A stretch of 64,000 bases of DNA from positions 62,001 to 126,000 of the IMG/VR virus record IMGVR_UViG_3300028572_000010; one strand, given 5' to 3'. The stretch is from an uncultured virus (IMG/VR IMGVR_UViG_3300028572_000010) (lineage: Duplodnaviria > Heunggongvirae > Uroviricota > Caudoviricetes). This document shows positions 29,849 to 64,000 of this stretch, piece after piece (within the stretch, counting starts at the first letter, position 1; the number at the start of each line of letters is the position of its first letter). The translations under genes were made by a program, and so were the position numbers. The notes below the pieces were generated by a model. It was given only the letters and a program-made list of their open reading frames with translations. It ran no database searches and was not told the origin of the DNA.

Positions 29849-29851
29849 AAA

Positions 29852-30079
29852 TTATTTCGGTTTAACTTCCTCAATTATCTCTGGATTTAAAGTACCAGTT
29901 TTAAAGAATAGACTAACACCCTTCCACCCACCTAATTGAGTCCAGAACTTAATACAAGCCCAGATATGAAGATAGAGTGTGTGAGGGAGTGCAAGTAGTA
30001 ATGCTACTTCATAACCACTTAAATGATAACCTGCTGCACTAGCTATTTGTTGTGCTAATTGAATTTCGTTCGTATTCAT
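29852..30079 (-). CDS. small membrane protein (holin-like?)
   Basis: 75 aa with a hydrophobic segment and a charged C-terminus. Confidence 0.35.
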   Translation of the reverse strand: MNTNEIQLAQQIASAAGYHLSGYEVALLLALPHTLYLHIWACIKFWTQLGGWKGVSLFFKTGTLNPEIIEEVKPK

Positions 30080-30080
30080 A

Positions 30081-31913: not shown

Positions 31914-31988
31914 TTTAATTTAAGTCTGATTTCGGAATTCACTTAATAATATTGGTCAAAAACAGGATTGCGGTGGTTAGGGTCATAG

Positions 31989-37215: not shown

Positions 37216-37593
37216 TCATAATTCTAATTCTAGCTTTCTATCATTAATATTGTATTCCTGTCTAATTTTAGCAATTTTATTCTTTTTCTTAGATTTAATA
37301 GGCTGTGGTTTATAGTTTTTCTTAAAGTCTAATTCTATTGACTGTTTGCAACCTTTACAACCTATACAATTATAACAAGCACTACAACGACTACAACTTC
37401 TACAACTATTACAATTAATACAATCACTACAATAACTACAATTAATACAACTACTACAATTACTACAACTACTACAATCTCTACAATTATAACAATTAGT
37501 TAAGGTAGGTGAATATGTAGTAGCTAGTTCTTCAGTTATCCAACTATTACCGTTTTCGTCATACCATCTATCAGCTCTTTTTGTTAGTTTCAT
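37216..37593 (-). CDS. (Cxx)n repeat protein, RWYDEN family; ends DRKLELEL
   Basis: Conserved N-domain, 9-bp TGT-NNT-NNT repeats and tagged tail. Confidence 0.8.
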   Translation of the reverse strand: MKLTKRADRWYDENGNSWITEELATTYSPTLTNCYNCRDCSSCSNCSSCINCSYCSDCINCNSCRSCSRCSACYNCIGCKGCKQSIELDFKKNYKPQPIKSKKKNKIAKIRQEYNINDRKLELEL

Positions 37594-37772
37594 GATTGTG
37601 TTACTGAAATATAACGTAAAGAACTACCATTTAAAGCATAAGCGTAATTAAGTATTCTAACTTCATCATCACTTAAATCAACTATGGTAAGGTCTTCAAA
37701 ATTTAATGTTCCATTTATCTTATCAACCAATATATAAGTATCATCGATTGTATTTTTATTGTTTATTATCAT
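37590..37772 (-). CDS. hypothetical protein
   Basis: 60 aa, ATGA-coupled on both sides. Confidence 0.55.
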   Translation of the reverse strand: MIINNKNTIDDTYILVDKINGTLNFEDLTIVDLSDDEVRILNYAYALNGSSLRYISVTQS

Positions 37773-38182
37773 AGTTCAATCTCCAATCTTCTATCATTAA
37801 TATTGTATTCCTGTCTAATTTTAGCAATTTTATTCTTTTTCTTAGATTTAATAGGCTGTGGTTTATAGTTTTTCTTAAAGTCTAATTCTATTGACTGTTT
37901 GCAACCTTTACAAATACTACAACCACTACAACGACTACAACTAATACAATTTCTACAATTACTACAATCACTACAATTATAACAATTAATACAACTACTA
38001 CAATTACTACAACTACTACAATAACTACAATTATAACAATCTCTACAACTACTACAATTACTACAACCTCTACAATCATAACAATTAGTTAAGGTAGGTG
38101 AGTATTGAGTAGCTGATTCTTCAGTTATCCAACTATTATTATTTTCGTCATACCATCTATTATTTCGTTTTCTTAGTTTCAT
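37769..38182 (-). CDS. (Cxx)n repeat protein, RWYDEN family; ends DRRLEIEL
   Basis: Same N-domain, repeats and tagged tail as 37216. Confidence 0.8.
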   Translation of the reverse strand: MKLRKRNNRWYDENNNSWITEESATQYSPTLTNCYDCRGCSNCSSCRDCYNCSYCSSCSNCSSCINCYNCSDCSNCRNCISCSRCSGCSICKGCKQSIELDFKKNYKPQPIKSKKKNKIAKIRQEYNINDRRLEIEL

Positions 38183-38202
38183 AGTGCTGTTTGTAAATGA
38201 TA

Positions 38203-38229
38203 ATAGCCTCCTAATTTTGTAGGAGGCTA
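38203..38229. terminator. intergenic hairpin
   Basis: TAGCCTCCTA...TAGGAGGCTA inverted repeat. Confidence 0.45.
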
Positions 38230-38243
38230 TGTTAAGATTGATA

Positions 38244-38942
38244 TTATTTATTTAAATAATGGACTAATTTCAATTTAATTTGATTAGCTAACTTCTTCCA
38301 ACCACTACTATTAGGATGTATTTCATTACCCCAGTCAGAAGTAGTTAATGTTCCTTGAAAATTAATATGAAGATGATTAGGTAGACTGAGCAAACTTATT
38401 CTTCTTTCAAATTCTAAAAGAATAAGCTTCGTTATATCAGCAGCATCTTTAGGATTAGTCCAGCCACAATGATCCATCCCAGGTTTAATCCAAGGACCTA
38501 ACCACAATACACCATTACCAATCATTTCAGGAACAGGAAAATCATAGCTATGTGTAATTATGAGACAGTTAGGAGCTATTTCATCTCTTAACTGAAACAG
38601 ATCCTCATAATCTGCTATAGCAAGATCCATGGCTGCATCAAGTCTATCAAGATCTATGGCTTTATTAATATTTCCATCCTTATTATCATTTAGAAATATA
38701 GGAAGCTGATCACCCACAAAATCATCACCACCACCTGAGAATAATAAGATATCACTGTTTGGTAGATATTGTTCCAACTTTAATCTCTTCTTTAAGCCCA
38801 TTGTTTCTTCAGTACTATCACCGGGATGGGCATAGTTTTCAATATCAATATCTAACACAACAGCTAAATGATCAGCCAACCCACCACCAGAGAAAGGAAG
38901 TGGGTAGCTGTTCCAACTATCACCATCTGCTATTATTTTCAT
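38244..38942 (-). CDS. SGNH/GDSL-family hydrolase
   Basis: ADGDSW, SGGGDD and NEIHP blocks. Confidence 0.8.
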   Translation of the reverse strand: MKIIADGDSWNSYPLPFSGGGLADHLAVVLDIDIENYAHPGDSTEETMGLKKRLKLEQYLPNSDILLFSGGGDDFVGDQLPIFLNDNKDGNINKAIDLDRLDAAMDLAIADYEDLFQLRDEIAPNCLIITHSYDFPVPEMIGNGVLWLGPWIKPGMDHCGWTNPKDAADITKLILLEFERRISLLSLPNHLHINFQGTLTTSDWGNEIHPNSSGWKKLANQIKLKLVHYLNK

Positions 38943-39262
38943 AATTCTAGTTCCAATCTTCTATCGTTAATATTGTATTCTTGTCTAATTTTAGTAATTT
39001 TCTTCTTTTTCTTAGATTTAATAGGTTGTGGTTTATAGTTTTTCTTATTTGCAAGATGATTACAACTCCTACAATTAACACACATATAACAATCTCTACA
39101 ATCACTACAATCACTACAACTATTACAATTATTACAATTACTACAATCACTACACCAGTTACAATTAGTTAGATTAGGTGAGTGTAGAGTAGCTAGTTGT
39201 TCTGTTATCCAACTATTATTGTTTTCGTCATACCATCTATCATTTCTTTTTGTTAGTTTCAT
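38939..39262 (-). CDS. (Cxx)n repeat protein, RWYDEN family; ends DRRLELEL
   Basis: Same architecture as 37216. Confidence 0.8.
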   Translation of the reverse strand: MKLTKRNDRWYDENNNSWITEQLATLHSPNLTNCNWCSDCSNCNNCNSCSDCSDCRDCYMCVNCRSCNHLANKKNYKPQPIKSKKKKKITKIRQEYNINDRRLELEL

Positions 39263-39292
39263 AGTGTAGTAGTATAAACTACTCTAACTAAA

Positions 39293-39925
39293 TTAGAAGT
39301 TGTATTTCCAACTAACGAATAAGTGATATCTATGTCCAGACTCAGTTCCGGCATTGATCCATTCACCCCAAGTAAACCCAGCGCCGACTTTACTAGTAGC
39401 AGTATTATAAATATCAACGTTGTATCCTATATCCCACAACTCAGCTGCCCCAGATGACCCAGATAAGGGTGTTCCGATACCAGCAATAGCAATAGGATCA
39501 GCTTCAATGTTACGAATACCGGTAGGAAGCCAGTTTAATAGTGATGTTGATGCTAATGGATGCGTAGGTGTTGAAAGAGTTACTGAACCACTGACCAAAG
39601 ACCAGGACCCCAACCAATCTGCCCCTAACACTGCACCAACTGCTCCTAAAGACCCGGTAAGTGTTGGGACATTATATACTGCCAATACACCACCACCATA
39701 TTTGTTAGCTGACTTAGGTGCATAAGTACCATAAGGACTAACTCCCCAATTAGTTGCCTGCATAATACCAGAATTTGCAATGTCCTGATAGATAGCCTGC
39801 ACAGCTGTTGAGACAGGAATGTTGGCCATCAAGTTTGGGACTTGAGTGACATTAGTTTGACCGAAAGCAGAAATAGTGCATAGACTAATTACTGCCATTA
39901 TTGATGTTATTGATGTTAATTTCAT
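39293..39925 (-). CDS. outer-membrane beta-barrel-like protein
   Basis: Signal peptide, amphipathic strands, C-terminal beta-signal-like HLFVSWKYNF. Confidence 0.55.
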   Translation of the reverse strand: MKLTSITSIMAVISLCTISAFGQTNVTQVPNLMANIPVSTAVQAIYQDIANSGIMQATNWGVSPYGTYAPKSANKYGGGVLAVYNVPTLTGSLGAVGAVLGADWLGSWSLVSGSVTLSTPTHPLASTSLLNWLPTGIRNIEADPIAIAGIGTPLSGSSGAAELWDIGYNVDIYNTATSKVGAGFTWGEWINAGTESGHRYHLFVSWKYNF

Positions 39926-39956
39926 ATGTTTATTATACGTTAATTTGTTTGTTTGT

Positions 39957-40202
39957 CTAGTTGTTATTCTTAAAAAATTCTTTGGTTAATCTTCTTATTC
40001 CTGATATCAAACCTAAAATTGCATATAAAGGCCAAATTGTTACATCTATTACAGCATATATGGCAATTACTAGGATAAATAATATTAACTTACACTTCTT
40101 AGGATAGTAATGGATGTCAGTATATTCAATAACAGTTCTTAAAGCTATAAGTATCCCTACTACTAAGTAACAGCTGGTTAATATTATATGGTTTGCTATC
40201 AC
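39957..40202 (-). CDS. small two-TM membrane protein
   Basis: Two hydrophobic segments; GTGA-coupled. Confidence 0.55.
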   Translation of the reverse strand: MIANHIILTSCYLVVGILIALRTVIEYTDIHYYPKKCKLILFILVIAIYAVIDVTIWPLYAILGLISGIRRLTKEFFKNNN

Positions 40203-40678
40203 AGTTCAATCTCCAATCTTCTATCATTAATGTCATATTCCTGTCTAATTTTACTCTTCTTAGCTCTACGTTTATACTTCATAGGTTTATAATAGCTTTT
40301 CTTAAAACCAAAAGCACAGTTTCTACAAAAAGAAAAGGTATTACATTTATAACAGTTTTTACAGTTACTACACTCACTACAATTATTACAATAACTACAA
40401 TAACTACAATCAATACAGCCAGTACAATCACTACAACGATTACAATCAATACAACTACTACAACCACTACAACTACTACAATTACTACAATCATTACAAT
40501 CATAACAATCAATACAACCAATACAACCTTTACAATGAATACAATTCCTACACCATCTACAATCTCTACAACTACTACAATTAGTTAGGGTAGGAGAGTC
40601 AGTAGTAGCTAGTTCTTCTGTAGACCAACTATTATTGTTTTCGTCATACCATCTATTATCTATTTTAGTTATTGTCAT
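40199..40678 (-). CDS. (Cxx)n repeat protein, RWYDEN family; ends DRRLEIEL
   Basis: Same architecture as 37216. Confidence 0.8.
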   Translation of the reverse strand: MTITKIDNRWYDENNNSWSTEELATTDSPTLTNCSSCRDCRWCRNCIHCKGCIGCIDCYDCNDCSNCSSCSGCSSCIDCNRCSDCTGCIDCSYCSYCNNCSECSNCKNCYKCNTFSFCRNCAFGFKKSYYKPMKYKRRAKKSKIRQEYDINDRRLEIEL

Positions 40679-40968
40679 AAGTCTAGTTCTAATCTTCTCT
40701 CTCCTCCCTCACTTCTAATTGACTTATTACCTTTAAATTCTACTAGCTCAAACTCAAGAATTTTAGTAACGAGAAAATTAAAACTATTCATTAGTGTAAT
40801 TTCATATAGTTCGTCTCCAATTTTTTCTCTATCTTCAAATACTCTAGCATTTTTTACTTCCCTTGTTGTATAGTCTATATAAGAATTCACTGCTAAATAC
40901 CGAATTTCATCAGCATTATCATATAGAAAACCATTTAGTTTTAGAACCTGTATTAGGTATATTTTCAT
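40675..40968 (-). CDS. non-Cys hypothetical protein ending IRSEGGERRLELDL
   Basis: 97 aa; carries the shared C-terminal motif. Confidence 0.65.
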   Translation of the reverse strand: MKIYLIQVLKLNGFLYDNADEIRYLAVNSYIDYTTREVKNARVFEDREKIGDELYEITLMNSFNFLVTKILEFELVEFKGNKSIRSEGGERRLELDL

Positions 40969-41016
40969 TTAGAATATATTGTGCTAGTTCATATTTATCT
41001 ACTACTTCATATATGT

Positions 41017-41289
41017 TCATAATAGTTTAATTAATCTTGCTATTATTAATTCATGGGTATAAATAATGTCTGGATTAGATTGAACTGATTTACACATATG
41101 TATATCCCTTATACAATCTCTAACCCCTTCTCTCCTAGCATCTCTTTGTATTTCTTCAACTATATCTTCAAACCGATGCGCAAAAGTATCCATAAATACA
41201 TTTTTGCCTTCTAATTTAGCTTTAGCTTCTCTCTCACAAGCAGCTATAAGTTCTTTTTGTTGTTCTTCAAATTCGTATAGTGTCTTCAT
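41017..41289 (-). CDS. hypothetical protein
   Basis: 90 aa, ATGA-coupled. Confidence 0.55.
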   Translation of the reverse strand: MKTLYEFEEQQKELIAACEREAKAKLEGKNVFMDTFAHRFEDIVEEIQRDARREGVRDCIRDIHMCKSVQSNPDIIYTHELIIARLIKLL

Positions 41290-41684
41290 AGTTCTATTTC
41301 CAGTTTTCTATTGTTTAAGTCAAATTCTTCTCTAACTAAATTTTCTTTGCAGCTTTCAATTAAACTTGCATCAACTTCAACTCTATCAAATAAAGAAGCA
41401 ATAAACTTACAATTATCACAATCACTACACCTACAACAACTCCTACAATTACTACAACTACTACAACTACCACAATTATTACAATTAATACAATCTCTAC
41501 AACTATCACAATCATTACAATTACTACACCAATTACTACAATCACTACAAACACTACAATTACTACAATTACTACAATTATAACAATTAGTTAGGGTAGG
41601 TGAATATAAAGTAGCTGCTTCTTCAGTATCCCAGCTATTATTGTTTTCGTCATACCATCTATTAGCTATTTTTGTTATTTTCAT
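41286..41684 (-). CDS. (Cxx)n repeat protein, RWYDEN family; ends NRKLEIEL
   Basis: Same architecture as 37216. Confidence 0.8.
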   Translation of the reverse strand: MKITKIANRWYDENNNSWDTEEAATLYSPTLTNCYNCSNCSNCSVCSDCSNWCSNCNDCDSCRDCINCNNCGSCSSCSNCRSCCRCSDCDNCKFIASLFDRVEVDASLIESCKENLVREEFDLNNRKLEIEL

Positions 41685-42013
41685 AAATCTGGTTCTAATA
41701 GTCTATCTCTACAATCTATAAACGGTCTAGTTACTGGTTCATACTTCTTATTATCAGTCCAATCACTACAATCAATACAGTTACTACAATCATTACACCA
41801 TCTACAATAAGTACAACTACTACAATTACTACAATTACTACAATTACTACAATTATAACAATCTCTACAATCTCTACAATCATTACACCATCTACAATCT
41901 CTACAACTAATACAATTAGTTAGAGTAGGTGAGAATTGAGTAGCTGATTCTTCTGTAGACCAACTATTATCGTTTTCGTCATACCATCTATCATCTCTTT
42001 TAGTTATTTTCAT
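41681..42013 (-). CDS. (Cxx)n repeat protein, RWYDEN family; ends DRLLEPDL
   Basis: Start MKITK at 42013 by alignment with paralogs. Confidence 0.8.
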   Translation of the reverse strand: MKITKRDDRWYDENDNSWSTEESATQFSPTLTNCISCRDCRWCNDCRDCRDCYNCSNCSNCSNCSSCTYCRWCNDCSNCIDCSDWTDNKKYEPVTRPFIDCRDRLLEPDL

Positions 42014-42245
42014 AGTATTCACCATTATACTGTTTAAGTTCTCTCCTTTTTATAATAGCTTTAACCTGTGTCTCTCCTACTTTATTATATACTAAAAAGT
42101 AGTTATTATTATCTTCTATAATTACATCGAATAAATAATGTAGATCACCCCACCACTGTACATCTATTTCTTTAGTTATTATGACTTCCATATTACTCAA
42201 AAGCCGAAATCGAGTAGGAAAGATACGAGGATTTGGATCTGACAT
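42000..42245 (-). CDS. hypothetical protein
   Basis: 81 aa ORF. Confidence 0.5.
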   Translation of the reverse strand: MSDPNPRIFPTRFRLLSNMEVIITKEIDVQWWGDLHYLFDVIIEDNNNYFLVYNKVGETQVKAIIKRRELKQYNGEYYENN

Positions 42246-42246
42246 A

Positions 42247-42687
42247 CTAAATCTCGTCTAACATAGATTCCTGCTCAACCTTACGCCGCATTAACATACC
42301 AAGTACATAGCAATTAGGTGAAGAAGAAAGCCAAAAATTGTCTTTTAACACATATGAATGCATAATATGTAGATAGAGACAAATAGCTGAACTTCTAGAT
42401 ACCCCAGCTGCACAATGAACTATGAAATCTTTGGTTAAATGCTTATCAATGAACTTTAATATTTTAAAAGCATCTTCAGCACTAATAGGATGATACATTT
42501 CGCCTTCATGAGTTAAAGGTGCAGTTATATCAGTAAATCTTAAAGTTAACACATTTTCTGACTCTCTATCCAACTTTAAAGGATAAAGTGGCTCATATTC
42601 TTCATTTATTGATATCAATACTGTGTTATCTGGTAGTTTATTGATATCTTTGGCGGCATGACAATTTATATTTGTGGCTTTAGGCAT
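42247..42687 (-). CDS. protein tyrosine/dual-specificity phosphatase-like protein
   Basis: VHCAAGVSRS (CX5R) active-site loop. Confidence 0.85.
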   Translation of the reverse strand: MPKATNINCHAAKDINKLPDNTVLISINEEYEPLYPLKLDRESENVLTLRFTDITAPLTHEGEMYHPISAEDAFKILKFIDKHLTKDFIVHCAAGVSRSSAICLYLHIMHSYVLKDNFWLSSSPNCYVLGMLMRRKVEQESMLDEI

Positions 42688-42692
42688 ATTGT

Positions 42693-43019
42693 TTATAATT
42701 CTAGATCTAATCTTCTGTACTGGTTCTCTATTCTTATTTCAGGCTTACTTAACTCAGCTAATTCTATCTCAACTATTTCGTATTTGTACGCTTCTTTTAT
42801 CATCCTTACCCTTTTAATTTCTTGTTCCACAGCTTCTTTACTAAGATACAAAGAGGCTTGGTATAAATCTACAGGTTCAATACTAGTCTGTTCTTCATCA
42901 TCACAGTAACCTTCCCTATCATAAAATTCGATATACTTAATAACTACTCTAACAAACTTATTAGGTAGGGTATTTCTACTATATTTAACTTTCAATATTT
43001 TAATAGCATATACAATCAT
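42693..43019 (-). CDS. non-Cys hypothetical protein ending YRRLDLEL
   Basis: 108 aa; carries the shared C-terminal motif. Confidence 0.65.
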   Translation of the reverse strand: MIVYAIKILKVKYSRNTLPNKFVRVVIKYIEFYDREGYCDDEEQTSIEPVDLYQASLYLSKEAVEQEIKRVRMIKEAYKYEIVEIELAELSKPEIRIENQYRRLDLEL

Positions 43020-43429
43020 AAATCTAGGTCTAGCTTTCTATTATTAATGTCTAATTCTGGTCTTATTTCCTTATTAACTTCATCTCCATAATACATGGAC
43101 TTAAACCACGATTTATCATTTTCTGAAGAAATATTACTACAACTACTACAATAAATACAATCTCTACAACTACTACAATCACTACAACCATTACAATCTC
43201 TACAATCAATACAATTACTACAATTATAACAATCTCTACAACCATTACAACCACTACAAGCATTACAATCACTACAATATCTACAATTACTACACCTTCT
43301 ACAATCACTACAACCTCTACACCATCTACAATCAGTTAGGGTAGGTGAGTGTAAAGTAGCTGATTCTTTAGTATCCCAGCTATTATAGTTTTCGTCATAC
43401 CATCTAGTATCTCTTTTAGTTATTGTCAT
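43016..43429 (-). CDS. (Cxx)n repeat protein, RWYDEN family; ends NRKLDLDL
   Basis: Same architecture as 37216. Confidence 0.8.
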   Translation of the reverse strand: MTITKRDTRWYDENYNSWDTKESATLHSPTLTDCRWCRGCSDCRRCSNCRYCSDCNACSGCNGCRDCYNCSNCIDCRDCNGCSDCSSCRDCIYCSSCSNISSENDKSWFKSMYYGDEVNKEIRPELDINNRKLDLDL

Positions 43430-43659
43430 AAATCTGGTTCTAATCTTCTTTCCCCACCCTCACTTCTAATTGTTATCTCATCTTTCTCAACCGATACAAA
43501 CTCCTTCAATTCAAATTCACCTACTACAGTACTATTATCTGTTAAAAATTTGATATATTCCAGGGCTGCCTCCTTATTTTGAAACGCTTGATATAGGACG
43601 TCTATAATAGCGTTAGTTGATGGAGATCTGATATGTCTTAGAATGATATAAAGAGTCAT
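43426..43659 (-). CDS. non-Cys hypothetical protein ending IRSEGGERRLEPDL
   Basis: 77 aa; carries the shared C-terminal motif. Confidence 0.65.
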   Translation of the reverse strand: MTLYIILRHIRSPSTNAIIDVLYQAFQNKEAALEYIKFLTDNSTVVGEFELKEFVSVEKDEITIRSEGGERRLEPDL

Positions 43660-43661
43660 AA

Positions 43662-44159
43662 CTACATTAACTTTTTAGGAAGTTTATATAGAGTAACTTC
43701 AATGTTACTTCCTTTAATAACCTCCTTAACCATAGTTTCAATAATATTCCAATTACCGCCAGCCCTATCCGCACCTATCTTATAAGGTAAAGCCAGTCTA
43801 GTCATATTCTGCTCACTCATTTGCTTTATTAATGACTCTAAAGCTAAGTAAAATCCTTCATAATGCACATATCTAAGATGCATTGTACCATAACCTAATT
43901 GACCATATAGATTGGCAACGTATAGTAGCTTGGTCTGATTAGGTAGAGTAGTGATAGGAACTAACACACATTTACCCAACATAGCTGAACCAAAGTTAAT
44001 ATAAGACTTGGTATCAGTTGCATATACTTCCGGAAATCTACATCTTAGGGCTCTGGCTACCCCACTACCCATTTTGTTCATATTATTACAGCAATGAGCA
44101 ACTACTTGGGCGTCTGCTAATAATATGTTTTGTTCTACTATTTTAAGGTTGTTATTCAT
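43662..44159 (-). CDS. macrodomain protein (ADP-ribose binding/hydrolase)
   Basis: AHCCN..MGSGVA...ANLYGQ...PYKIGADRAGGNW. Confidence 0.85.
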   Translation of the reverse strand: MNNNLKIVEQNILLADAQVVAHCCNNMNKMGSGVARALRCRFPEVYATDTKSYINFGSAMLGKCVLVPITTLPNQTKLLYVANLYGQLGYGTMHLRYVHYEGFYLALESLIKQMSEQNMTRLALPYKIGADRAGGNWNIIETMVKEVIKGSNIEVTLYKLPKKLM

Positions 44160-44533
44160 AAATCTGGTTCTAATAGTCTGTTAGTACAGTCTATAAATGG
44201 TCTAATTACCGGTTCATATTTCTTATTATCAGTCCAATCACTACAATCTCTACAACGACTACAATAACTACAATCACTACAATCACTACACCTATTACAA
44301 TTATTACAATTACTACAATTACTACAATTATTACAATTAATACAACTACTACAATTACTACAACTACTACAATAACTACAATTATAACAATCTCTACAAC
44401 TACTACAATTACTACAACCTCTACAATCATAACAATTAGTTAAGGTAGGTGAGTATTGAGTAGCTGATTCTTCAGTTATCCAACTATTATTATTTTCGTC
44501 ATACCATCTATTATTTCTTTTTGTTATTGTCAT
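44156..44533 (-). CDS. (Cxx)n repeat protein, RWYDEN family; ends NRLLEPDL
   Basis: Same architecture as 37216. Confidence 0.8.
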   Translation of the reverse strand: MTITKRNNRWYDENNNSWITEESATQYSPTLTNCYDCRGCSNCSSCRDCYNCSYCSSCSNCSSCINCNNCSNCSNCNNCNRCSDCSDCSYCSRCRDCSDWTDNKKYEPVIRPFIDCTNRLLEPDL

Positions 44534-44955
44534 AAGTCTGGTTCCAACTTTCTATCATTAATGTCTAATTCTGGTCTTATCATAACTTCAGTCTTAATTT
44601 GAACTGGCTCTAGATGTGTTCCATTATCACATTTATAACATTTTTTACAATCACTACAATCATTACAACTACTACAATCACTACAAACACTACAAACACT
44701 ACAATTAATACAACCTCCACAACTACTACAATCACTACAAACACTACAAACACTACAATTAATACAACCTCCACAAGTACTACAACCACTACAATTACTA
44801 CAATCATCACAATAACTACAATCATCACAATTACTACAACCTCTACAATCTCTACAATTAGTTAGGGTAGGTGAGTATTGAGTAGCTGCTTCTTCTGATA
44901 ACCAGCTATTATTGTTTTCGTCATACCATCTATTGTTTATTTTTGTTATTGTCAT
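44530..44955 (-). CDS. (Cxx)n repeat protein, RWYDEN family; ends DRKLEPDL
   Basis: Same architecture as 37216. Confidence 0.8.
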   Translation of the reverse strand: MTITKINNRWYDENNNSWLSEEAATQYSPTLTNCRDCRGCSNCDDCSYCDDCSNCSGCSTCGGCINCSVCSVCSDCSSCGGCINCSVCSVCSDCSSCNDCSDCKKCYKCDNGTHLEPVQIKTEVMIRPELDINDRKLEPDL

Positions 44956-45218
44956 AAGAAAGGGTCTAGATTTCTATCATTAATGTCTAAGATAGGTCGT
45001 TTTTCATTTGTTGTATCAATGCTAGGTTGCGCTGACCAATTTTTCTTATTTATAAAATTATAAAGTCCTTCACAATCACTACAATTAATACCATTACTAC
45101 AATTATTACAATCATTACAACCACTACAATCCCAACAATCAATACAATCACTACAATTGTAGCAATCATTACAACCATCATGATTTATTAGTATTACTTT
45201 ATAGTCATAAGTTTTCAT
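44952..45218 (-). CDS. (Cxx)n repeat protein lacking the RWYDEN N-domain; ends DRNLDPFL
   Basis: Cys repeats plus shared tail. Confidence 0.7.
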   Translation of the reverse strand: MKTYDYKVILINHDGCNDCYNCSDCIDCWDCSGCNDCNNCSNGINCSDCEGLYNFINKKNWSAQPSIDTTNEKRPILDINDRNLDPFL

Positions 45219-45230
45219 ACTACTTCTTAA

Positions 45231-45518
45231 TTAAAGGTCACGCATAGTATCGAATTCAGTTATATCAGCCCGCATAGTTCCTGGTTCTTCAACTTCACTG
45301 ATAACCGGCTCTGGAACCTTGAGTACAGTTCTAATTTCTCTAATAATATCTTCAAATATAGGACGATCCAGACCTAAGTGAATGTTATAAGCTACACTAG
45401 TTGCAAAAGCCATTCTAGTACCGGTAGTGTCATCGATATTCTCTAATTGATTTAAAACTGCCCAAAGAATGGCATCTTTAGGGTCAGAGACTAGGGCTGG
45501 TAATGGTGATATAGGCAT
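45231..45518 (-). CDS. hypothetical protein
   Basis: 95 aa ORF. Confidence 0.5.
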   Translation of the reverse strand: MPISPLPALVSDPKDAILWAVLNQLENIDDTTGTRMAFATSVAYNIHLGLDRPIFEDIIREIRTVLKVPEPVISEVEEPGTMRADITEFDTMRDL

Positions 45519-45551
45519 AATATTAGTTTGTTGGTTTGTTGGTTTGGTTGT

Positions 45552-46031
45552 TTACTTTTTGGTTTTTGGTTTAATAGCATCCTGGAAATTCTTGAGTTCT
45601 TGCTGAGCTGTTTTTATGCTTCTGGTAGTTAGTTTAGCATAATGTTTCTTCTTCTTTTCAATATCTTTTGCTTTTCGGATCAATGCTGGAATAACACTAC
45701 TATAATGTACAATCGACCTTTGTATTTTAATCAGACTATTATCAACTTCTATATATTCCGAACCAGGACTAAAATAGTGGTAATTATAGGTTAATCTATC
45801 AAACTCAAAATATAGAAGAGAACTTATTATTGGAATCTCTAAATAGATGTTAATGTCTCTACATTGACCTACTTTTAATTTATTGTTATTTTTTTGTTCT
45901 ATCCCACCAAAAGTTAAATTAGAATAAGTATTATTAGTATTCCATATTTGAACCAATCTATTAACTAAATCTATATTAATTTTAACTATTGTACTATTAT
46001 GGTCTTGGAAGCATTGTTCTAGGAAAGTCAT
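45552..46031 (-). CDS. hypothetical protein
   Basis: 159 aa ORF. Confidence 0.55.
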   Translation of the reverse strand: MTFLEQCFQDHNSTIVKINIDLVNRLVQIWNTNNTYSNLTFGGIEQKNNNKLKVGQCRDINIYLEIPIISSLLYFEFDRLTYNYHYFSPGSEYIEVDNSLIKIQRSIVHYSSVIPALIRKAKDIEKKKKHYAKLTTRSIKTAQQELKNFQDAIKPKTKK

Positions 46032-46348
46032 ATAAACAATATTTTAGGGTGTATTCTACATTTATTCAATTTAAGCTCAGCATAAATCTGTGTAGCTAAT
46101 TCAAAATCATCTTTATCTATTACTTTATAATAAGTGGAATCTACTTTAGCAGCTAAATAGACTGTATCATTATTATCAAGTTCCACCTTCTTTAGTGATT
46201 CTTTACTCGAAATTCTAATATATACGGTTGATTCGTCCAATACCTTTGAAATATTTGTAGATCCACTAAATCCATCAAACAAATCTTTTATAATACTAAG
46301 TGGGACTAGCTCTTTGGTAGGTTTGGCTACGATGAGGAAATAATTCAT
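46028..46348 (-). CDS. hypothetical protein
   Basis: 106 aa coupled ORF. Confidence 0.55.
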   Translation of the reverse strand: MNYFLIVAKPTKELVPLSIIKDLFDGFSGSTNISKVLDESTVYIRISSKESLKKVELDNNDTVYLAAKVDSTYYKVIDKDDFELATQIYAELKLNKCRIHPKILFI

Positions 46349-46602
46349 ATATTTATCATTTTTATATTAATACTTTGTTTAGTTGGTAAAATTTTAATCT
46401 TTTCTAGGAAGGAATTCATCATCCTTAAATTCATATCAGCTTCCATGAATACTGTTTCATTAGGTATGAAGTTTGTAAATTCTAGGTGATCTGGTTCAGT
46501 TATAATAGCTGTTTCTTCAGGTTTAAGCTTAAATTCTGAGGTTATAGTATTACCATTTACTATATTTTTAGCTATAACTATTGATATGTTTGGATTGTTC
46601 AT
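46345..46602 (-). CDS. hypothetical protein
   Basis: 85 aa coupled ORF. Confidence 0.55.
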   Translation of the reverse strand: MNNPNISIVIAKNIVNGNTITSEFKLKPEETAIITEPDHLEFTNFIPNETVFMEADMNLRMMNSFLEKIKILPTKQSINIKMINI

Positions 46603-47051
46603 AAGTCTGGTTCTAATAGTCTGTTAGTACAGTCTATAAATGGTCTAATTACCGGTTCATATTTCATGTTATTAGTCCAGTCATTACAACCACTACAACT
46701 ACTACAATTATTACAATTAATACAATGATCACACCAACTACTACAACTATTACAACCACTACAATTATAACAAGTACTACAACCACTACAACTATTACAA
46801 CCACTACAACTACTACAACTACTACAATCACTACAAACACTACAAACACTACAACTAATACAACCTCTACAAGTACTACAACCACTACAATTACTACAAT
46901 CATCACAATAACTACAATCATCACAATTACTACAACCTCTACAATCTCTACAATTAGTTAGGGTAGGTGAGTATTGAGTAGCTGCTTCTTCTGATAACCA
47001 GCTATTATTGTTTTCGTCATACCATCTATTGTTTATTTTTGTTATTGTCAT
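46599..47051 (-). CDS. (Cxx)n repeat protein, RWYDEN family; ends NRLLEPDL
   Basis: Same architecture; apparent mosaic of the 44530 and 44156 copies. Confidence 0.8.
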   Translation of the reverse strand: MTITKINNRWYDENNNSWLSEEAATQYSPTLTNCRDCRGCSNCDDCSYCDDCSNCSGCSTCRGCISCSVCSVCSDCSSCSSCSGCNSCSGCSTCYNCSGCNSCSSWCDHCINCNNCSSCSGCNDWTNNMKYEPVIRPFIDCTNRLLEPDL

Positions 47052-47091
47052 ATATTAAGGGGAAGATAGTAACTATCCTCCCATCTTATTT

Positions 47092-47310
47092 TTAGCTATC
47101 AACACCTCTAGCCGCAACATAAAGTTGATTATCTTTATTTACGCTTAGCAATACCCATTTAGGTTTATCTGTATTCAGTATCATTCCAAATACTACTGGC
47201 ATTTCATCGTCAATCATACTTTTAGCTTTGGTAACTAACTCTGCTGGAGCATTAGTCACACCATAATTCCAACCTTTACTAGTTATTTCTTCACAGATTT
47301 TATAAGTCAT
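47092..47310 (-). CDS. hypothetical protein
   Basis: 72 aa coupled ORF. Confidence 0.5.
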   Translation of the reverse strand: MTYKICEEITSKGWNYGVTNAPAELVTKAKSMIDDEMPVVFGMILNTDKPKWVLLSVNKDNQLYVAARGVDS

Positions 47311-48119
47311 ATTTTAGTATCATTAGTTGAAGTTGGATTAGTGATGAAACTTATCTGACTAGTACTTGTGACTTTATCCAGGGCATCAATAGAACAAGTA
47401 AACATGGCAACAGTATCGACACAACGCTTTTGTAGGACATTGGAAGAAGCTAAACTATAAGCATATGCAATACCACTACTAGTTTGCTGATAATTCAAAC
47501 TTTGCCCTGGAGCTACACTATATTGTGAACTTTCTTGAATTGCATCCTGATTAGCACCTAGATAGATAAACTGCCAATTAAGACTTTGTTTATCCGCTAT
47601 CCTTCTAGACAGATCATCCTTCTTAAACTTAGTACTGCTATTTTCCGCCCCATCAGTAATGACTAGAAAAATAATCCTACCAGGCCTGTCTTCTTCTTTA
47701 GTCACATTAATAAACTGTGTGCAATCATCAATAGCTTTACAAAATGCATCTATTAATGGAGTTCCACCTACAGGACTTATCTCTTGAATAGGAGTGATGT
47801 CGTTAATATTAACTTTATCGAAATGAACTACATAATTGAAATTAACATCAACAGGTTCTCCATGATTAGAATTATAGTTAGTAAACCAATTACTAGGATG
47901 ACTAACACTACTAAAGAATACTACCGAAGTAGTACATTTAACATTATTACTACTATCACTTAAATCTTCTGCAAAACTAAGATTTCTATCCTGGCTTGGC
48001 AATACCTTCTGTTGATTCAAGAAGTTATTTATGCCATCTACGGTAGCTTGTCTAGTATTAAACATGCTACCACTATTGTCTACTAATACTACGATATGTG
48101 TATAATTTGTATTACTCAT
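47307..48119 (-). CDS. von Willebrand factor A (vWA) domain protein
   Basis: MIDAS DNSGSM, GGTPLIDA, VITDGAENSS, WQFIYLGANQD. Confidence 0.9.
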   Translation of the reverse strand: MSNTNYTHIVVLVDNSGSMFNTRQATVDGINNFLNQQKVLPSQDRNLSFAEDLSDSSNNVKCTTSVVFFSSVSHPSNWFTNYNSNHGEPVDVNFNYVVHFDKVNINDITPIQEISPVGGTPLIDAFCKAIDDCTQFINVTKEEDRPGRIIFLVITDGAENSSTKFKKDDLSRRIADKQSLNWQFIYLGANQDAIQESSQYSVAPGQSLNYQQTSSGIAYAYSLASSNVLQKRCVDTVAMFTCSIDALDKVTSTSQISFITNPTSTNDTKI

Positions 48120-48487
48120 AAGTCTGGTTCTAAAAGTCTCTGGGCCGGGTCAAATTCTTCTCTTAAAGTTGATTCACGAACAATTTCTTGGGGTTCTAGG
48201 TTTATTTTATTTAAATAATTAGCGCAATGTATGCAACTTCTACAAGCATGACAAGCATAACAATCTCTGCAATTACTACAATCATAACAATTAATACACG
48301 CAATACAATCATTACACCAACTACAACGACTACAATCTCTACAATCTCTACACTCTCTACAATAACTACAATCTCTACAACTACTACAATTAGTTAGGGT
48401 AGGTGAGTATTGAGTAGCTTCTTCTTCAGTTATCCAACTATTATTGTTTTCATCAAAGTATCTATTATTTCTTTTAATTATTGTCAT
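48116..48487 (-). CDS. (Cxx)n repeat protein, RWYDEN family (RYFDEN variant); ends QRLLEPDL
   Basis: Same architecture as 37216. Confidence 0.8.
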   Translation of the reverse strand: MTIIKRNNRYFDENNNSWITEEEATQYSPTLTNCSSCRDCSYCRECRDCRDCSRCSWCNDCIACINCYDCSNCRDCYACHACRSCIHCANYLNKINLEPQEIVRESTLREEFDPAQRLLEPDL

Positions 48488-49011
48488 AGATTTGGATCTA
48501 AATTTCTATCTTCATCTGAATACATAGTTCTAGTAGTAGATTGCTCGTCTACTGGTCTTACTGTAGGTCTTAGAGAGGCTGTATAATTTGTAGGATCTTC
48601 ATTTAATGATGGAACAACACTTCTAGTATCAACTACAATTTCAGATCCTCTAATTCCTTGTAGTACTCCTCCTACGCTAGCAGGAACTCCAACGACAGTA
48701 TCTCTTCTCATAATATTGCTTACCTGCCTTATATATTCCATCTCTGTCCTTAAAGAATTAATCGAATTTGCTAATAATTCTATATTAGATCTTAGTTCAC
48801 ATACGTCTCTATAACGACTATCTAAATTACTTTTAAGTCCTTTTAATTCAGACTGGGCCGAAAATTGATGAGTAGGTAAACTACATACTTCATTACTCTT
48901 ACCTATGTAAATTATATGCTTACCTACATAAGTTATATCAGCGCCTTTAGTTTCAGGTTTAATACTGTTGAATAACCAATTAATGAATTTAGCTTTGAGT
49001 TTGTTTAACAT
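48484..49011 (-). CDS. coiled-coil hypothetical protein ending DRNLDPNL
   Basis: 175 aa; carries the shared C-terminal motif. Confidence 0.6.
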   Translation of the reverse strand: MLNKLKAKFINWLFNSIKPETKGADITYVGKHIIYIGKSNEVCSLPTHQFSAQSELKGLKSNLDSRYRDVCELRSNIELLANSINSLRTEMEYIRQVSNIMRRDTVVGVPASVGGVLQGIRGSEIVVDTRSVVPSLNEDPTNYTASLRPTVRPVDEQSTTRTMYSDEDRNLDPNL

Positions 49012-49218: not shown

Positions 49219-49617
49219 TCAAGGAGAGACAGTAATTGAGGAACTATTGATGGTAACGGTTTCAGGAGTGGATAAAGTACTTAAATCATCCGTTTGTTGA
49301 CATAGAATTTGAATGTCAGAATATATGTGTGTACTTATATCAGTTAATAAAGTGGGATCTTCTGATATTAAAGATATGGCACTATCTCTGAAAAACATAT
49401 TGCCTTGATTAGGACTACTATAAGGCAAATCCTCCATCTCAGTAGGTGAAGCTACAGTATAGAAAGTATCGTCAAAAGTACCATCAGCTCTAACAATACG
49501 TTGTTTGACAAATATATGAGAATCTATATTATTAGAAGAAGTGACGGTAATATTTAATAAGTAGTTGCTCGGTCTGGTTGATTGAGCAGTCTGTTGTGTT
49601 AATGTTATGGATGTCAT
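49219..49617 (-). CDS. hypothetical (structural-like) protein
   Basis: Likely start MTSITL at 49617. Confidence 0.55.
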   Translation of the reverse strand: MTSITLTQQTAQSTRPSNYLLNITVTSSNNIDSHIFVKQRIVRADGTFDDTFYTVASPTEMEDLPYSSPNQGNMFFRDSAISLISEDPTLLTDISTHIYSDIQILCQQTDDLSTLSTPETVTINSSSITVSP

Positions 49618-49644
49618 ACCACAAATTATTATATTAAACAAATT

Positions 49645-50301
49645 ATGGCAAGTATTTTAAGCATACCTTATGACCCGGAAATCGTTGAAGTAAGCCCTGA
49701 TGCTTCTGCTCCACCTAAAAGTTATATTGTTCCTAAATTCGATAATTTTGGTAAAAAGAAAGTAAATGGTGAAATGGTAGGTGGTAGTAAAGAAGCAGAG
49801 AAACTAAAAAGATTAATGTTAGATAGTATGCAGAATAGAGGTTCTTTGATGCCGGGGTTTGTAATGACTCCTACTGGCCCTATAAAAGCAGTACATGCTA
49901 AGCAGGAACCTTTAACTATTAAATTTACTAAGCAAGCAACTGAAGAAGTACAAAACTTAACCAAACCTAAAAAAGGTAAGAAAGCTAAACTACAAGAAAT
50001 TGAATCATTACCTATTATGGAAGAAACTATGCCTACTAAAACAGAATACCCTGTCACTTTCATTATTGAGTCAGGTAAGATCAAGGGTATGATAGATGCA
50101 GTATTGGAAGATGAATTATTCCTGGCACTAGTATTTAATAATGAGGGATCAGTAACTTATGTACCAGAACAAGGCAGTCCATTAAAATTATTGTTACCTG
50201 ATAAAAGACAATTAAATGTAGTTTTTTCAGGCTCTCAATTAGATTGGTACAATACTAATCAACAAATATTATTATTCCTTAAACAGGAAAAAGTTAGCTA
50301 A
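49645..50301 (+). CDS. hypothetical protein
   Basis: 218 aa ORF. Confidence 0.6.
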   Translation: MASILSIPYDPEIVEVSPDASAPPKSYIVPKFDNFGKKKVNGEMVGGSKEAEKLKRLMLDSMQNRGSLMPGFVMTPTGPIKAVHAKQEPLTIKFTKQATEEVQNLTKPKKGKKAKLQEIESLPIMEETMPTKTEYPVTFIIESGKIKGMIDAVLEDELFLALVFNNEGSVTYVPEQGSPLKLLLPDKRQLNVVFSGSQLDWYNTNQQILLFLKQEKVS

Positions 50302-57396: not shown

Positions 57397-57912
57397 TCAG
57401 ATTTTGGTTTTGATAATGTGTTCAACCAGATTGATTAACTTCTTATACTGCTTACCAAACTTATTGTTTTTATGAGTCTTTTCTACTTTGTTTTTGAACT
57501 CAGTCAAATTTCCTGTAAAACAACCACAATCTACTTGAACATTCTTTCCTACCCAATAAATGGTAGTTTGAGCGTTTCTAGAACCAATTTTAGAAGAAGT
57601 AAATCTTTGTGGGTTAGATTTGAAACCAATACAAGTAATACAACTTATACAATCTCTACAATCTCTACAATAATTACAACTATTACAATCTCTACAATCA
57701 TAGCAACCATTACAACCTTTACAATAAATACAATCATTGCAATATCTACAATTACTACAATTATTACAACTACTACAATTATCACACCAACCACAATCAA
57801 TACAACTAGTACAACCGGTTAGGGTAGGTGAGTATAGAGTAGCTAATTCTTCTGATAACCAGCTATTATTGTTTTCGTCATACCATCTATTATATCTTTT
57901 TGTTATTTTCAT
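57397..57912 (-). CDS. (Cxx)n repeat protein, RWYDEN family, with IGSR...CGCF.G C-terminal domain
   Basis: Same N-domain and repeats; C-domain of the type seen on phage pentapeptide/hexapeptide repeat proteins; no shared tail motif. Confidence 0.75.
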   Translation of the reverse strand: MKITKRYNRWYDENNNSWLSEELATLYSPTLTGCTSCIDCGWCDNCSSCNNCSNCRYCNDCIYCKGCNGCYDCRDCNSCNYCRDCRDCISCITCIGFKSNPQRFTSSKIGSRNAQTTIYWVGKNVQVDCGCFTGNLTEFKNKVEKTHKNNKFGKQYKKLINLVEHIIKTKI

Positions 57913-58141
57913 AGTATTCAAAAGCTTCATCTAATTGTTTTAAAGCCTGGTCACGTTTTGACCCTTCCTTATACTTGAGATTAATACCTTTATTACCAGT
58001 AAGTCCAATATACAACCATGCTTTAAGTAGATCTCTAGGTTGAGGTGATGGACTATCAAACTCATTATATGCATAATAATTAGTTATAGCTGATAAAACT
58101 AACCTATGTCCATCTATAAATATAATTTTAGAATTTTTCAT
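57890..58141 (-). CDS. hypothetical protein
   Basis: 83 aa ORF. Confidence 0.5.
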   Translation of the reverse strand: MKNSKIIFIDGHRLVLSAITNYYAYNEFDSPSPQPRDLLKAWLYIGLTGNKGINLKYKEGSKRDQALKQLDEAFEYYENNKKI

Positions 58142-59748: not shown

Positions 59749-60318
59749 TTAGAATTCAAGACCGATCCCTGCCTGCCAACGAACTCCATTATCACTCCCA
59801 CTAGTACGCCAACTCTTACCTGATTCTTGAGTAAACAAGTCATAATTAGCGCCGGCATAAGAATAGGTATGATCGTTAAAATACCATTGCAGCAAGATTT
59901 CAGGCCCGGTTCTCCACAAATCAGAAACACCAGCACCATAAACGTTACCTATACTCCAACCTCCGTTAAAGTATAGGTTCCTCCAAATCTGCTGGTTCCA
60001 ATCTGCATCAATATCTGTAGCCCCACCAAACAAAGGCTGCCAGTAAATGCTCTGACTAGCACCAACCCAGATACTCGGAACCTGTTTGAACGGATCAATA
60101 GAGAAGGAGGTATCAAATCCTACTGTATTGTGGTTGTTATATGAAGTACCGGCACCACCAAATGTAATGTCGATCTTATTATAGTCAACACTACCTACAT
60201 TAGTTTCACTCAATGTAGGCGGACTGAGTATAATTGGTGTGTGGTTAGTATTGGTTTCGGCCAATGTTGTAATTGCTGACAATATAGTAATTGCCAGCAA
60301 GATTGTAGTTTTTATCAT
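59749..60318 (-). CDS. outer-membrane beta-barrel-like protein
   Basis: Signal peptide, about 8 amphipathic strands, C-terminal VRWQAGIGLEF. Confidence 0.65.
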   Translation of the reverse strand: MIKTTILLAITILSAITTLAETNTNHTPIILSPPTLSETNVGSVDYNKIDITFGGAGTSYNNHNTVGFDTSFSIDPFKQVPSIWVGASQSIYWQPLFGGATDIDADWNQQIWRNLYFNGGWSIGNVYGAGVSDLWRTGPEILLQWYFNDHTYSYAGANYDLFTQESGKSWRTSGSDNGVRWQAGIGLEF

Positions 60319-63815: not shown

Positions 63816-64000
63816 TTAGTGTTTTGTTAAATAGTTTACTAACATAAGTATCAAGGTTCCTCCAAGCAATACAAGAAATAGTTTTAAAACGAAATAAGGA
63901 TATTTATTTCGGTCCTGTATAGAATTGACGTTATGATGATAATCTTTACGATCTCTACAATATGTACAACCACTACAATTATTACAATCACTACAATGAC
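63816..64000 (-). CDS. (Cxx)n repeat protein with C-terminal TM helix (5' truncated)
   Basis: ...CSDCNNCSGCTYCRD...YFVLKLFLVLLGGTLILMLVNYLTKH*. Confidence 0.6.
   Translation of the reverse strand, partial: HCSDCNNCSGCTYCRDRKDYHHNVNSIQDRNKYPYFVLKLFLVLLGGTLILMLVNYLTKH

Follow-up and report, generated by a model that had tools for sequence, protein, structure and literature searches.

What could make so many proteins of one phage, most of them without detectable relationship to each other, end in the same few residues? The question is raised by a 64,000-nucleotide stretch of an uncultured tailed virus (IMG/VR record IMGVR_UViG_3300028572_000010), here called the window, which corresponds to bases 62001-126000 of the 127,352-bp single-contig record. 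Within 12 kb of the window, 16 open reading frames (ORFs) carry a common seven-residue C-terminal peptide, the tag, and an initial annotation made from the sequence alone took it for a terminal docking or addressing signal that recruits diverse proteins to one receptor. These shared ends are genuine and occur far more often than chance would allow. What is selected is the peptide and not the DNA, and comparison with homologues now identifies the probable source of the tag in the tails of two conserved phage proteins, an AAA+ ATPase and its neighbour, a DUF3150 protein. The tag may serve as a docking peptide for a reader encoded by the phage itself.

Frequency and position of the tag

All 16 ORFs were found on the minus strand where the initial annotation had placed them, and they end as it had described. 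The strict form of the tag, R-x-L-[DE]-x-x-L-stop, was searched with the regular expression R.L[DE]..L$ among the 496 ORFs of at least 40 residues in the 127,352-bp contig and was found at 17 C-termini, the 16 of the window and one outside it (genome 17060-17455); all 17 are on the minus strand. Counted over non-overlapping gene calls, 17 of 177 termini are tagged, as compared to 0.004 expected from composition, and the motif is about 4000-fold above chance. When residues were shuffled within each protein (2000 shuffles), a comparison that the annotation had itself suggested, the 17 hits stood against a maximum of 1 and a mean of 0.007, which disposes of the idea that such ends are no commoner than chance.

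The tag must occupy the very C-terminus. No match was seen at the 38,610 internal positions of the contig, as compared to 0.93 expected, and scoring with a position-specific matrix of the last ten residues gave a bimodal distribution, with the 17 carriers at 19.6 bits or more, the runner-up C-terminus at -4.0 and all internal sites at 8 bits or lower. A second arginine 6-8 residues upstream of R(-6), described as usual in the annotation, is present in 16 of the 16 ORFs, at -14 in 13 and at -12 in three. The extended consensus of the tail is [DEN]-R-[RKNL]-L-[DE]-[PLI]-[DEYF]-L-COOH, and proline is found at position -2 in 24 of 50 distinct tags.

The contig represents only part of the genome. 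Its bases 1-91,796 are found at 100%, in reverse orientation, in another contig, G001 (151,189 bp), which continues beyond them and is in turn extended by a third, G002. The three were joined into a working composite of 212,600 bp with 325 gene calls, and a 218,290-bp database contig holds the same proteins. The phage is a contractile-tailed jumbo phage (a myovirus) with an intein-split multisubunit RNA polymerase, a sigma-like factor and many homing elements, and its nearest cultured relatives, as judged by the RNA polymerase, are only about 30% identical. In the composite the strict tag is found on at least 44 of the 325 gene calls (about 14%), all on one strand, with one internal match where 2.0 are expected. 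With their last 18 residues removed, the 44 carriers fall into 14 BLAST clusters, the largest of which is a Cys-repeat family of 27 members. An SH3-like start, 'xYxVGD', is common to some of the clusters with a single member, and these may be remotely related. If the seven carriers of a sister species, G004, are included, the resulting 51 proteins form 21 BLAST clusters.

Selection on the peptide

A shared end of this kind could also arise without any function of the peptide, by paralogy combined with an element in the DNA or RNA that couples translation at ATGA stop/start overlaps. A 4-nt overlap with the next start (YTATGA or CTGTGA) is seen for 14 of 17 tagged genes as compared to 21 of 160 untagged genes, which means that the last Leu codon is constrained, and one paralog family holds 27 of the 44 carriers. 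This overlap is the only real DNA-level signal at the tags. It is missing, however, where the tag ends in TAA or TAG, as in 12 of the 50 distinct tag DNAs that were collected from the phage and its strain variants (stops: TGA 38, TAA 11, TAG 1), and the tag at 37216 has no downstream gene at all. Where untagged genes have the same 4-nt overlap, the last residue is I, L, K, Q, G, S or R. A Shine-Dalgarno-like 4-mer stands upstream of only nine of the 37 genes whose starts coincide with or closely follow a tag, and of 36 of the 288 other genes.

The codons themselves vary. The 50 tag DNAs were picked by the regular expression, so that their residues are fixed by definition, and at Arg(-6) the codons are AGA 35, AGG 8, CGA 5, CGT 1 and CGG 1, and at Leu(-4) TTA 21, CTA 12, TTG 8, CTT 5 and CTG 4. 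The synonymous variation of the Leu codons, which the annotation had reported, is thereby confirmed, and it extends to every conserved codon, including a switch between the AGR and CGN families for Arg. In a strain variant, L003, the last eight residues of 13 carrier pairs are 96.2% identical, as compared to 76.1% elsewhere in the same proteins. From the synonymous variation, the tags free of overlap, the few Shine-Dalgarno-like 4-mers and the conservation of the last eight residues, selection is shown to act on the peptide and not on the DNA; translational coupling, which the annotation had named as an example of a DNA-level explanation that would refute its proposal, does not account for the tags. 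Nor does paralogy, as 21 BLAST-unrelated clusters bear the tag. The explanation by coupling and paralogy is already largely refuted, and we consider the probability that it is true to be close to negligible.

Native tails of the AAA+ ATPase and the DUF3150 protein

Tails of the same type are found on two conserved proteins. The AAA+ ATPase ends in DRALDPFN in the phage and in NRRLDEKFS in G004, and its DUF3150 neighbour ends in YTRRLDFDEL and YTRRLDTEGI, respectively. Among DUF3150 homologues, 52 of 54 end in [YF]-x-R-x-[LIVM]-[DEK]-x(0-5), and the strict tag is found on 11 of the 54 (for instance YTRRLDTDL and YTRRLDLEL), while among AAA+ homologues 79 of 120 have a C-terminus of the form R-x-[LIVM]-x(1-5), such as MRKLSIAIG.., LRELDIS, LRSIAI and VRKIKA. 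The tail is thus a family trait of both proteins, which implies that the small proteins carry a copy of a pre-existing tail. On this comparison the source of the tag is now identified, as the tails of AAA+ and DUF3150.

The AAA+ protein matches the D2 domain of Cdc48/p97 (phmmer, E 2.6e-47). Its AlphaFold2 (AF2) model, with a predicted local distance difference test score (pLDDT) of 90.7, was aligned by Foldseek over about 585 columns, in full length, to the D1-D2 tandem of Rix7, p97 and Cdc48 (TMq about 0.6, E about 1e-22). The first approximately 250 residues therefore form a degenerate D1-like domain; the model has no separate N domain ahead of this fold. The last 19 residues of the AAA+ protein (536-554) and the last six of DUF3150 (323-328) have pLDDT values below 50, and the adjoining bodies are well folded; the tails are predicted to be disordered, as free docking tails would be. 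For DUF3150 no sequence relative was found by profile in the PDB at E below 0.37, no Foldseek match to its AF2 model (pLDDT 81) at E 0.001 or better, and no match by tblastn.

The pair sits in a replication-type block with helicase, polymerase and phosphoesterase, and five small conserved ORFs, including DUF1257 and DUF2997, accompany it in all lineages examined. A conserved neighbour of 75 residues (composite 60309-60536, L045:16509-16736) ends in ...EEVRVIESRL, as does its ortholog in the more distant relative G007 (68% identical), and this end is tag-like, R-x-I-E-x-x-L. In the phage, the AAA+ gene is split exactly at Walker A (...KGVLLAG / IPGTGKT...) by an in-frame, stop-rich insert of about 290 nt (L045:12643-12933 in G001, composite 64112-64402). 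The insert is probably a self-splicing intron; it had no Rfam match at E 0.01 or better, and the G004 gene is uninterrupted and encodes 554 residues. In cultured phages, gp96 of mycobacteriophage Corndog, an AAA+ ATPase, ends in RVLDL, and perhaps its neighbour has a similar tail, YALDFEEVV. In the 25 kb examined of Rhizobium phage L338C only a neighbour of the ATPase ends in a comparable way, RRAVKL. No expanded set of tagged small proteins was found in Corndog or in these 25 kb of L338C.

The nature of the native bearers also bears on the possibility that the tag is a virion address, by which small proteins are loaded into the capsid or tail for co-injection. Capsid-targeting peptides at the C-terminus and the N-terminus are known in HK97, T4 and encapsulins, and the carriers are small, numerous and placed beside counter-defence-type genes that would profit from early arrival. 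However, AAA+ and DUF3150 lie in a replication-type block, and none of the recognised structural ORFs is tagged; sheath, baseplate J, fibre-like and prohead-protease-like ORFs (the last at L036:10456-13014) all score -4 bits or lower. This lack of the tag on structural proteins argues against virion addressing, which we regard as quite improbable.

Replacement of a C-terminal domain in the Cys-repeat family

The Cys-repeat family (phrog_15341) is represented in the window by 12 genes at 37216-48487 and by two more at 57397-57930 and 63816-64000. Its members have a conserved N-terminal domain of about 33 residues (RWYDENNNSW..SPTLTNC) followed by C-x-x repeats, the number of which varies among paralogs and among strains. 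A profile search gave 178 relatives in the protein database, and among the best 120 of these, which were examined, the majority share the N-terminal domain and the C-x-x repeats and continue into a helical C-terminal domain of about 60 residues. The tag is found on 27 of the 120, and all 27 are close relatives of the phage. The untagged paralog at 57397..57930 (-) has the ancestral helical domain of about 60 residues (phrog_20532) instead of the tag, and the one at 63816..64000 (-), which runs out of the window (genome 125816-126211), has a C-terminal hydrophobic helix instead. The annotation had remarked that these two paralogs and the enzymes interleaved with the carriers lack the tag, and this is correct.

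These comparisons show that the family gained the tag through domain replacement. As tag, helical domain and hydrophobic helix alternate among homologues and paralogs, the C-terminal module can be exchanged, which is what one would expect of a part that serves in localisation or in binding a partner. A tblastn search with a Cys-repeat carrier gave no match, probably owing to the low-complexity filter.

Tails in related lineages

The sister species G004 (134,588 bp, 42% G+C, terminase 77% identical) has the strict tag on seven of 201 genes, which encode seven further unrelated small proteins. Its tails are ERRLDTDL, ERRLDT[HQ]L and R[RQ]LDP[DNH]L, with the looser forms ERNIEPDL, ERRMDTDL and DRNLDQTI, and the lineage motif can be written RRLDT[DHQ]L. 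Position -2 is Thr or Pro in seven of seven. The annotation had compared the tag in concept to the clamp-binding motif of T4; the L-x-L-x-L appearance of such a motif is lost in G004, with its T or P at this position, and hydrophobic residues at alternate positions up to the C-terminus are not conserved.

Three more distant relatives, G006, G007 and G008, were found via DUF3150. G007 (45% G+C) has the tail RRLDVGDDL on DUF3150, DRKVTVDDL on AAA+, and RNISLKL (two), RNITLTL, RNVTLSL and RNLSFEL on small proteins, the last group being five of 105 genes. G006 (53% G+C) has RRIEV on DUF3150, RSIAI on AAA+, and RRIEL and RRISL on small proteins, in all four of 258 genes. G008 (35% G+C) has RAIKL on DUF3150, RKIKA on AAA+, and RAIKI (two), RKIKL and RAIRL on small proteins, which makes six of 56 genes when both core proteins are included. 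The lineage motifs are RN[ILV][ST][LF]xL in G007, R[RS]I[ESA][VLI] in G006 and RxI[KR][ILA] in G008; the terminal counts expected from composition are at most 0.006 in each lineage, and internal matches are at or near expectation.

The acidic residue of the phage tag is replaced by Ser/Thr at -3 in five of five G007 tags, and by Lys/Arg at the equivalent place in six of six G008 tails. One ortholog pair illustrates the change, a 166-residue protein ending in RRLDMEL in the phage and a 180-residue protein ending in DRNLSFEL in G007 (28% identity). A charge-swap screen over five lineages had only five testable ortholog groups, G008 being 20% complete. At the level of sequence, the tails of AAA+, DUF3150 and the small proteins are shown to change together in the related lineages, and a shared reader drifting along with its ligands would be the simplest explanation.

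Lineage-specific tails could also be tuned to the host. The reader would then be a host-encoded unfoldase, protease or other hub, and the tail a degron or a hijacking handle adapted to each host. The tails differ among lineages of 35, 42, 45 and 53% G+C, which may mean different hosts, and the G008 tails RRKIKL, KRAIKI and VRKIKA bear some likeness to the MuA-type ClpX signal RRKKAI. But host unfoldase signals of the ssrA type are widely conserved, whereas the tails change between fairly close phages with terminases that are 77% identical. Furthermore, the prototype tails are on conserved core proteins of the phage, the destruction of which would bring no obvious benefit. A host reader is therefore rather unlikely in our opinion.

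A candidate reader

We propose that the tag is a portable C-terminal docking peptide for one co-evolving reader encoded by the phage, with the AAA+ machine as the leading candidate; the chance that this is right falls, in our estimate, a little short of even. One reader would bind all tagged tails, and the AAA+ machine itself could do so, with the binding surface on the degenerate D1-like ring. In this scheme DUF3150 would act as a built-in cofactor of the machine, the ATPase's own tail a self- or pseudo-ligand, and the tagged small proteins clients of the unfoldase. It is conceivable that the clients are substrates, pulled apart or removed on cue, or that they are adaptors, each with a variable binding domain and a constant handle. 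Taken further, the tagged proteins (Cys-repeat arrays, SH3-like barrels and others) could be a diversifying adaptor library that brings host proteins, including defence factors, to the Cdc48-like unfoldase for disassembly, with handle and socket retuned together as lineages split. Such a library would correspond, on the viral side, to the F-box/PRANC substrate receptors, but without ubiquitin; we find it rather unlikely in this extended form.

The original idea of a docking or addressing signal on unrelated proteins is well supported by the comparisons, in so far as the tag is terminal, is selected as a peptide, is found in 14 unrelated families (with seven more in G004) and has tails that change in step. 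The receptors listed in the annotation missed the AAA+/DUF3150 tails as the source. Full-text literature searches, with subscription journals outside the coverage, revealed no earlier account of such a C-terminal tag in these phages or of the AAA+/DUF3150 module; PMC4284462 concerns a cyanobacterial gene cluster.

Covariation weakly supports the ATPase as the reader. Among 94 AAA+ homologues with a recognisable tail, the charge of the fourth residue of the tail is complementary to positions 337, 101, 59, 43, 15 and 62 (G004 numbering), which are mostly Arg/Lys with acidic tails and mostly Asp/Glu with Lys/Arg tails. In 20 close pairs that differ in tail class, this six-position patch, which was chosen post hoc, gave 15 opposite, two same and three unchanged. 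When the columns were instead selected from the other 54 sequences, the same 20 pairs, now held out, gave 11 opposite, three same and six unchanged, and random column sets were as good in a fraction of 0.0485.

Several observations weigh against the AAA+ machine as reader, or against parts of the argument leading to it. The covariation between AAA+ and tail is post hoc and confounded by relatedness, and a non-circular control, the net charge of the whole D1-like domain compared with the tail in 20 close pairs, showed no signal (nine opposite, ten same). In the AF2 model the tail of the ATPase is not docked in cis. The motifs of G006, G007 and G008 were defined on the same data as were counted, which makes their enrichment figures generous, and the overlap in 14 of 17 tags puts part of the constraint on the last codon at the DNA level. 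With their different G+C contents (35-53%), the lineages may also have different hosts, and a host-encoded reader would likewise produce tails specific to each lineage. Finally, an ATPase that bears the tail itself fits equally well with a third reader that binds AAA+, DUF3150 and the small proteins alike.

Such a third phage protein, neither AAA+ nor DUF3150, would be a ring or hub that joins the ATPase, DUF3150 and the small proteins, on the model of the 20S core of the proteasome, to which various activators attach by a common C-terminal tail. In its favour, AAA+ and DUF3150 both bear the tail, AF2 leaves both tails free, the net charge of D1 gave no signal, and five small conserved ORFs accompany the pair in all lineages examined. 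On the other hand, no clamp, peptidase ring or PDZ-like reader was found in Pfam and PHROGs scans of 224 and 133 ORFs, and the position-specific covariation of AAA+ is left unexplained. We judge a third protein to be somewhat unlikely.

A more specific suggestion is that the VWA-domain protein encoded at 47307..48119 (-), which is itself untagged, reads the tag. It has a complete metal-ion-dependent adhesion site (MIDAS; D14, S16, S18, T120 and D156), the metal of which would bind the acidic residue of the tag, as integrins do with LDV- or LDT-type ligands. The gene immediately follows a tagged gene, the stop of which overlaps its start, both in the phage and in G004 (50% identity), and the MIDAS is kept in 93 sequences, with D14, S18, T120 and D156 invariant and S16 in at least 90%. 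Tails such as LDTDL and LEPDL also look like integrin ligands. But the Asp/Glu at -3 is kept only in the phage and G004; it is Ser/Thr in G007 and Lys/Arg in G008, though G008 has a VWA homologue. Prediction of the complex between the VWA protein, Mg and 36-residue tag tails gave 0.00 in both runs, which counts neither for nor against binding. The VWA protein as reader is highly improbable.

Other short signals, namely PEXEL of Plasmodium (RxLxE), cyclin RxL, KDEL, type I/IV secretion signals and the tails of single-stranded DNA-binding proteins, were considered and dropped for their eukaryotic context, for a mismatch of register or because the machinery was absent from the scans.

Comparison with known systems

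The system is best described as hub-and-tail docking, unusually large in scale. The cofactor motifs of p97/Cdc48 (VIM, VBM, SHP box and the C-terminal tail) are similar in that the hub candidate is of the type-II Cdc48/Rix7 kind, that many unrelated partners have one short peptide and that the ATPase ends in a conserved flexible tail. The differences are that the phage ATPase is without a separate N domain, that the motif is strictly C-terminal and of other sequence, and that there is no ubiquitin system; the tag matches no VIM, VBM or SHP consensus. With the SspB XB peptide, ssrA and the MuA degron RRKKAI there is likewise a short C-terminal peptide, joined by a linker to a folded domain, that docks on or is engaged by an AAA+ unfoldase, and the basic-hydrophobic tails of G008 look MuA-like. 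The tag shares with such degrons and adaptors the short free C-terminal peptide on unrelated proteins (17 of 177 termini, 0 internal, 21 BLAST clusters). It is unlike them in its dozens of carriers per genome, in the candidate unfoldase being encoded by the phage, and in the acidic tail of the phage (L-[DE]-x-[DE]-L).

The clamp-binding tails of gp43, gp33 and gp55 in T4/RB69, and the bacterial motifs QL[SD]LF and QLxLxL, also have one hub, many partners and a short C-terminal peptide, and L-x-[LI]-x-L of the phage resembles QLxLxL. Here, however, the carriers are small orphan proteins and not replication or transcription enzymes, and position -2 is often Pro, or Thr/Pro in G004. No member of a clamp family was found in Pfam scans of 125 and 99 ORFs, although a remote homologue is possible. 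The ankyrin-repeat proteins of poxviruses with a PRANC/F-box-like end, and cellular F-box proteins, are comparable as a large and fast-evolving array of paralogs with variable repeats and a constant C-terminal piece for one machine. PRANC, though, is folded, has about 50 residues and takes host Skp1 as its partner, whereas the handle of the phage is 7-8 residues long and the machine probably the virus's own. The HbYX and GQYL tails of proteasomal ATPases and non-ATPase activators are another case in which one receptor accepts the common C-terminal tail of an AAA+ ATPase and of proteins unrelated to it, but a penultimate Tyr is found in only six of 44 tags, and no proteasome-like core was found.

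In this phage of approximately 213 kb, a seven-residue label borrowed from its own AAA+ appears to wire about one gene in seven to a single reader. If the reader is indeed the unfoldase, a widespread and unstudied Cdc48-like AAA+/DUF3150 module of phages would gain a function and a client list; the ATPase is present in cultured phages such as Corndog as well. Dozens of orphan genes would get a common biochemical handle for pull-downs, and the tag and its socket would be a natural, portable and lineage-tunable pair for targeted protein unfolding. The lineage-specific tails also provide a simple sequence rule for spotting client sets in other large phages.

The carriers in the window

The 16 carriers are all on the minus strand. 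The first, 37216..37593, is a Cys-repeat protein of 125 residues with the tail ...IRQEYNINDRKLELEL; its tag codons are at 37219-37242 and its stop at 37216-37218, without an overlapping downstream gene. It is followed by the Cys-repeat carriers 37769..38182 (137 residues, ...NDRRLEIEL), 38939..39262 (107 residues, ...NDRRLELEL) and 40199..40678 (159 residues, ...NDRRLEIEL), the last with a final Leu codon CTG that overlaps a GTG start. The gene at 40675..40968 encodes a carrier without Cys repeats, of 97 residues, with the tail ...SEGGERRLELDL. Two further Cys-repeat carriers, 41286..41684 (132 residues, ...NNRKLEIEL) and 41681..42025 (114 residues, ...RDRLLEPDL), precede the non-Cys carrier 42693..43019 (108 residues, ...QYRRLDLEL), which has the stop TAA and no start overlap. 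The next are the Cys-repeat carrier 43016..43429 (137 residues, ...NNRKLDLDL) and the non-Cys carrier 43426..43659 (77 residues, ...GGERRLEPDL).

In the remaining part, Cys-repeat carriers are encoded at 44156..44533 (125 residues, ...TNRLLEPDL), 44530..44955 (141 residues, ...NDRKLEPDL), 46599..47051 (150 residues, ...TNRLLEPDL) and 48116..48487 (123 residues, ...AQRLLEPDL), the stop of the last overlapping the start of the VWA gene. A short Cys-repeat carrier of 88 residues at 44952..45218 (...NDRNLDPFL) is without the N-terminal domain of the family, and the last carrier, 48484..49011 (175 residues, ...EDRNLDPNL), is a unique protein without Cys repeats. The annotation had counted four carriers that lack these repeats, and the numbers of Cys residues in 40675, 42693, 43426 and 48484 bear this out, being 0, 1, 0 and 2. 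Similarity between 40675 and 43426 is confined to the last approximately 34 residues, and for 42693 no relationship could be detected. The carriers gave no Pfam match at E 0.01 or better, and in PHROGs only phrog_15341, the Cys family; megablast of the 12-kb region against the phage collection gave no match.

The untagged proteins between the carriers include a dual-specificity-phosphatase-like enzyme (window 42247-42687) in which HCxxGxxR is present, a macro-domain protein (43662-44159; phrog_335, E 9e-33) and a protein with a GDSW start as in SGNH hydrolases and without a Pfam match (38244-38942). Genes for a Tad4 homologue, a macro domain, phosphatases, an R2K ATP-grasp enzyme and a VWA protein are likewise part of the tag islands of the composite, and the tagged genes differ between strains in copy number and repeat length. 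Such counter-defence-type neighbours, together with the strain variability, fit with early and fast-evolving proteins of host interaction. No clear promoter motif was found by 7-mer enrichment in 114 upstream regions. Just beyond the last carrier, two divergent ORFs, at 49219-49641 (-) and 49645-50301 (+), have start codons 3 nt apart, which leaves no intergenic room for promoters and suggests that one start or ORF may be miscalled.

Other features of the genome

A relative of the extension region (L010:11488-12164, composite 8665-9341) has a tagged array of SH3-like proteins in which the longest ORFs overlap by 29 nt. The N-terminus of the next gene, M[NS]ETLTHIYN, is there read in another frame through the preceding tag (ENIYERNLDPYL).

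A ThiF (E1-like) gene adjoins a gene for a prokaryotic JAB peptidase (L046:17324-18707), an R2K-clade ATP-grasp gene lies within a tag island (L051:15272-16117), and the homologue of Tad4, an anti-Thoeris protein, is at L052:2661-2990. The first two of these enzyme types act on protein C-termini in other systems.

Proteins with signal-peptide-like N-termini are encoded at 39293-39925, 59749-60318, 60334-61410 and 27956-34484 of the window. The C-termini of two small ones, ...YNF and ...GLEF, resemble those of outer-membrane beta-barrels, and three large ones (630, 610 and 831 residues) are encoded downstream of a tail-fibre-like gene. The signal peptides and the barrel-like Phe ends suggest secreted or surface-exposed phage products and a host that is Gram-negative.

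It was also possible to observe many selfish elements, in which the genome is unusually rich. Hint/LAGLIDADG domains are inserted within a SNF2-type helicase, RNA polymerase beta'-like subunits and the prohead-protease-like ORF (L035:8837-17312, L036:642-2981 and L036:10456-13014), and there are three stand-alone endonuclease VII/HNH genes as well.

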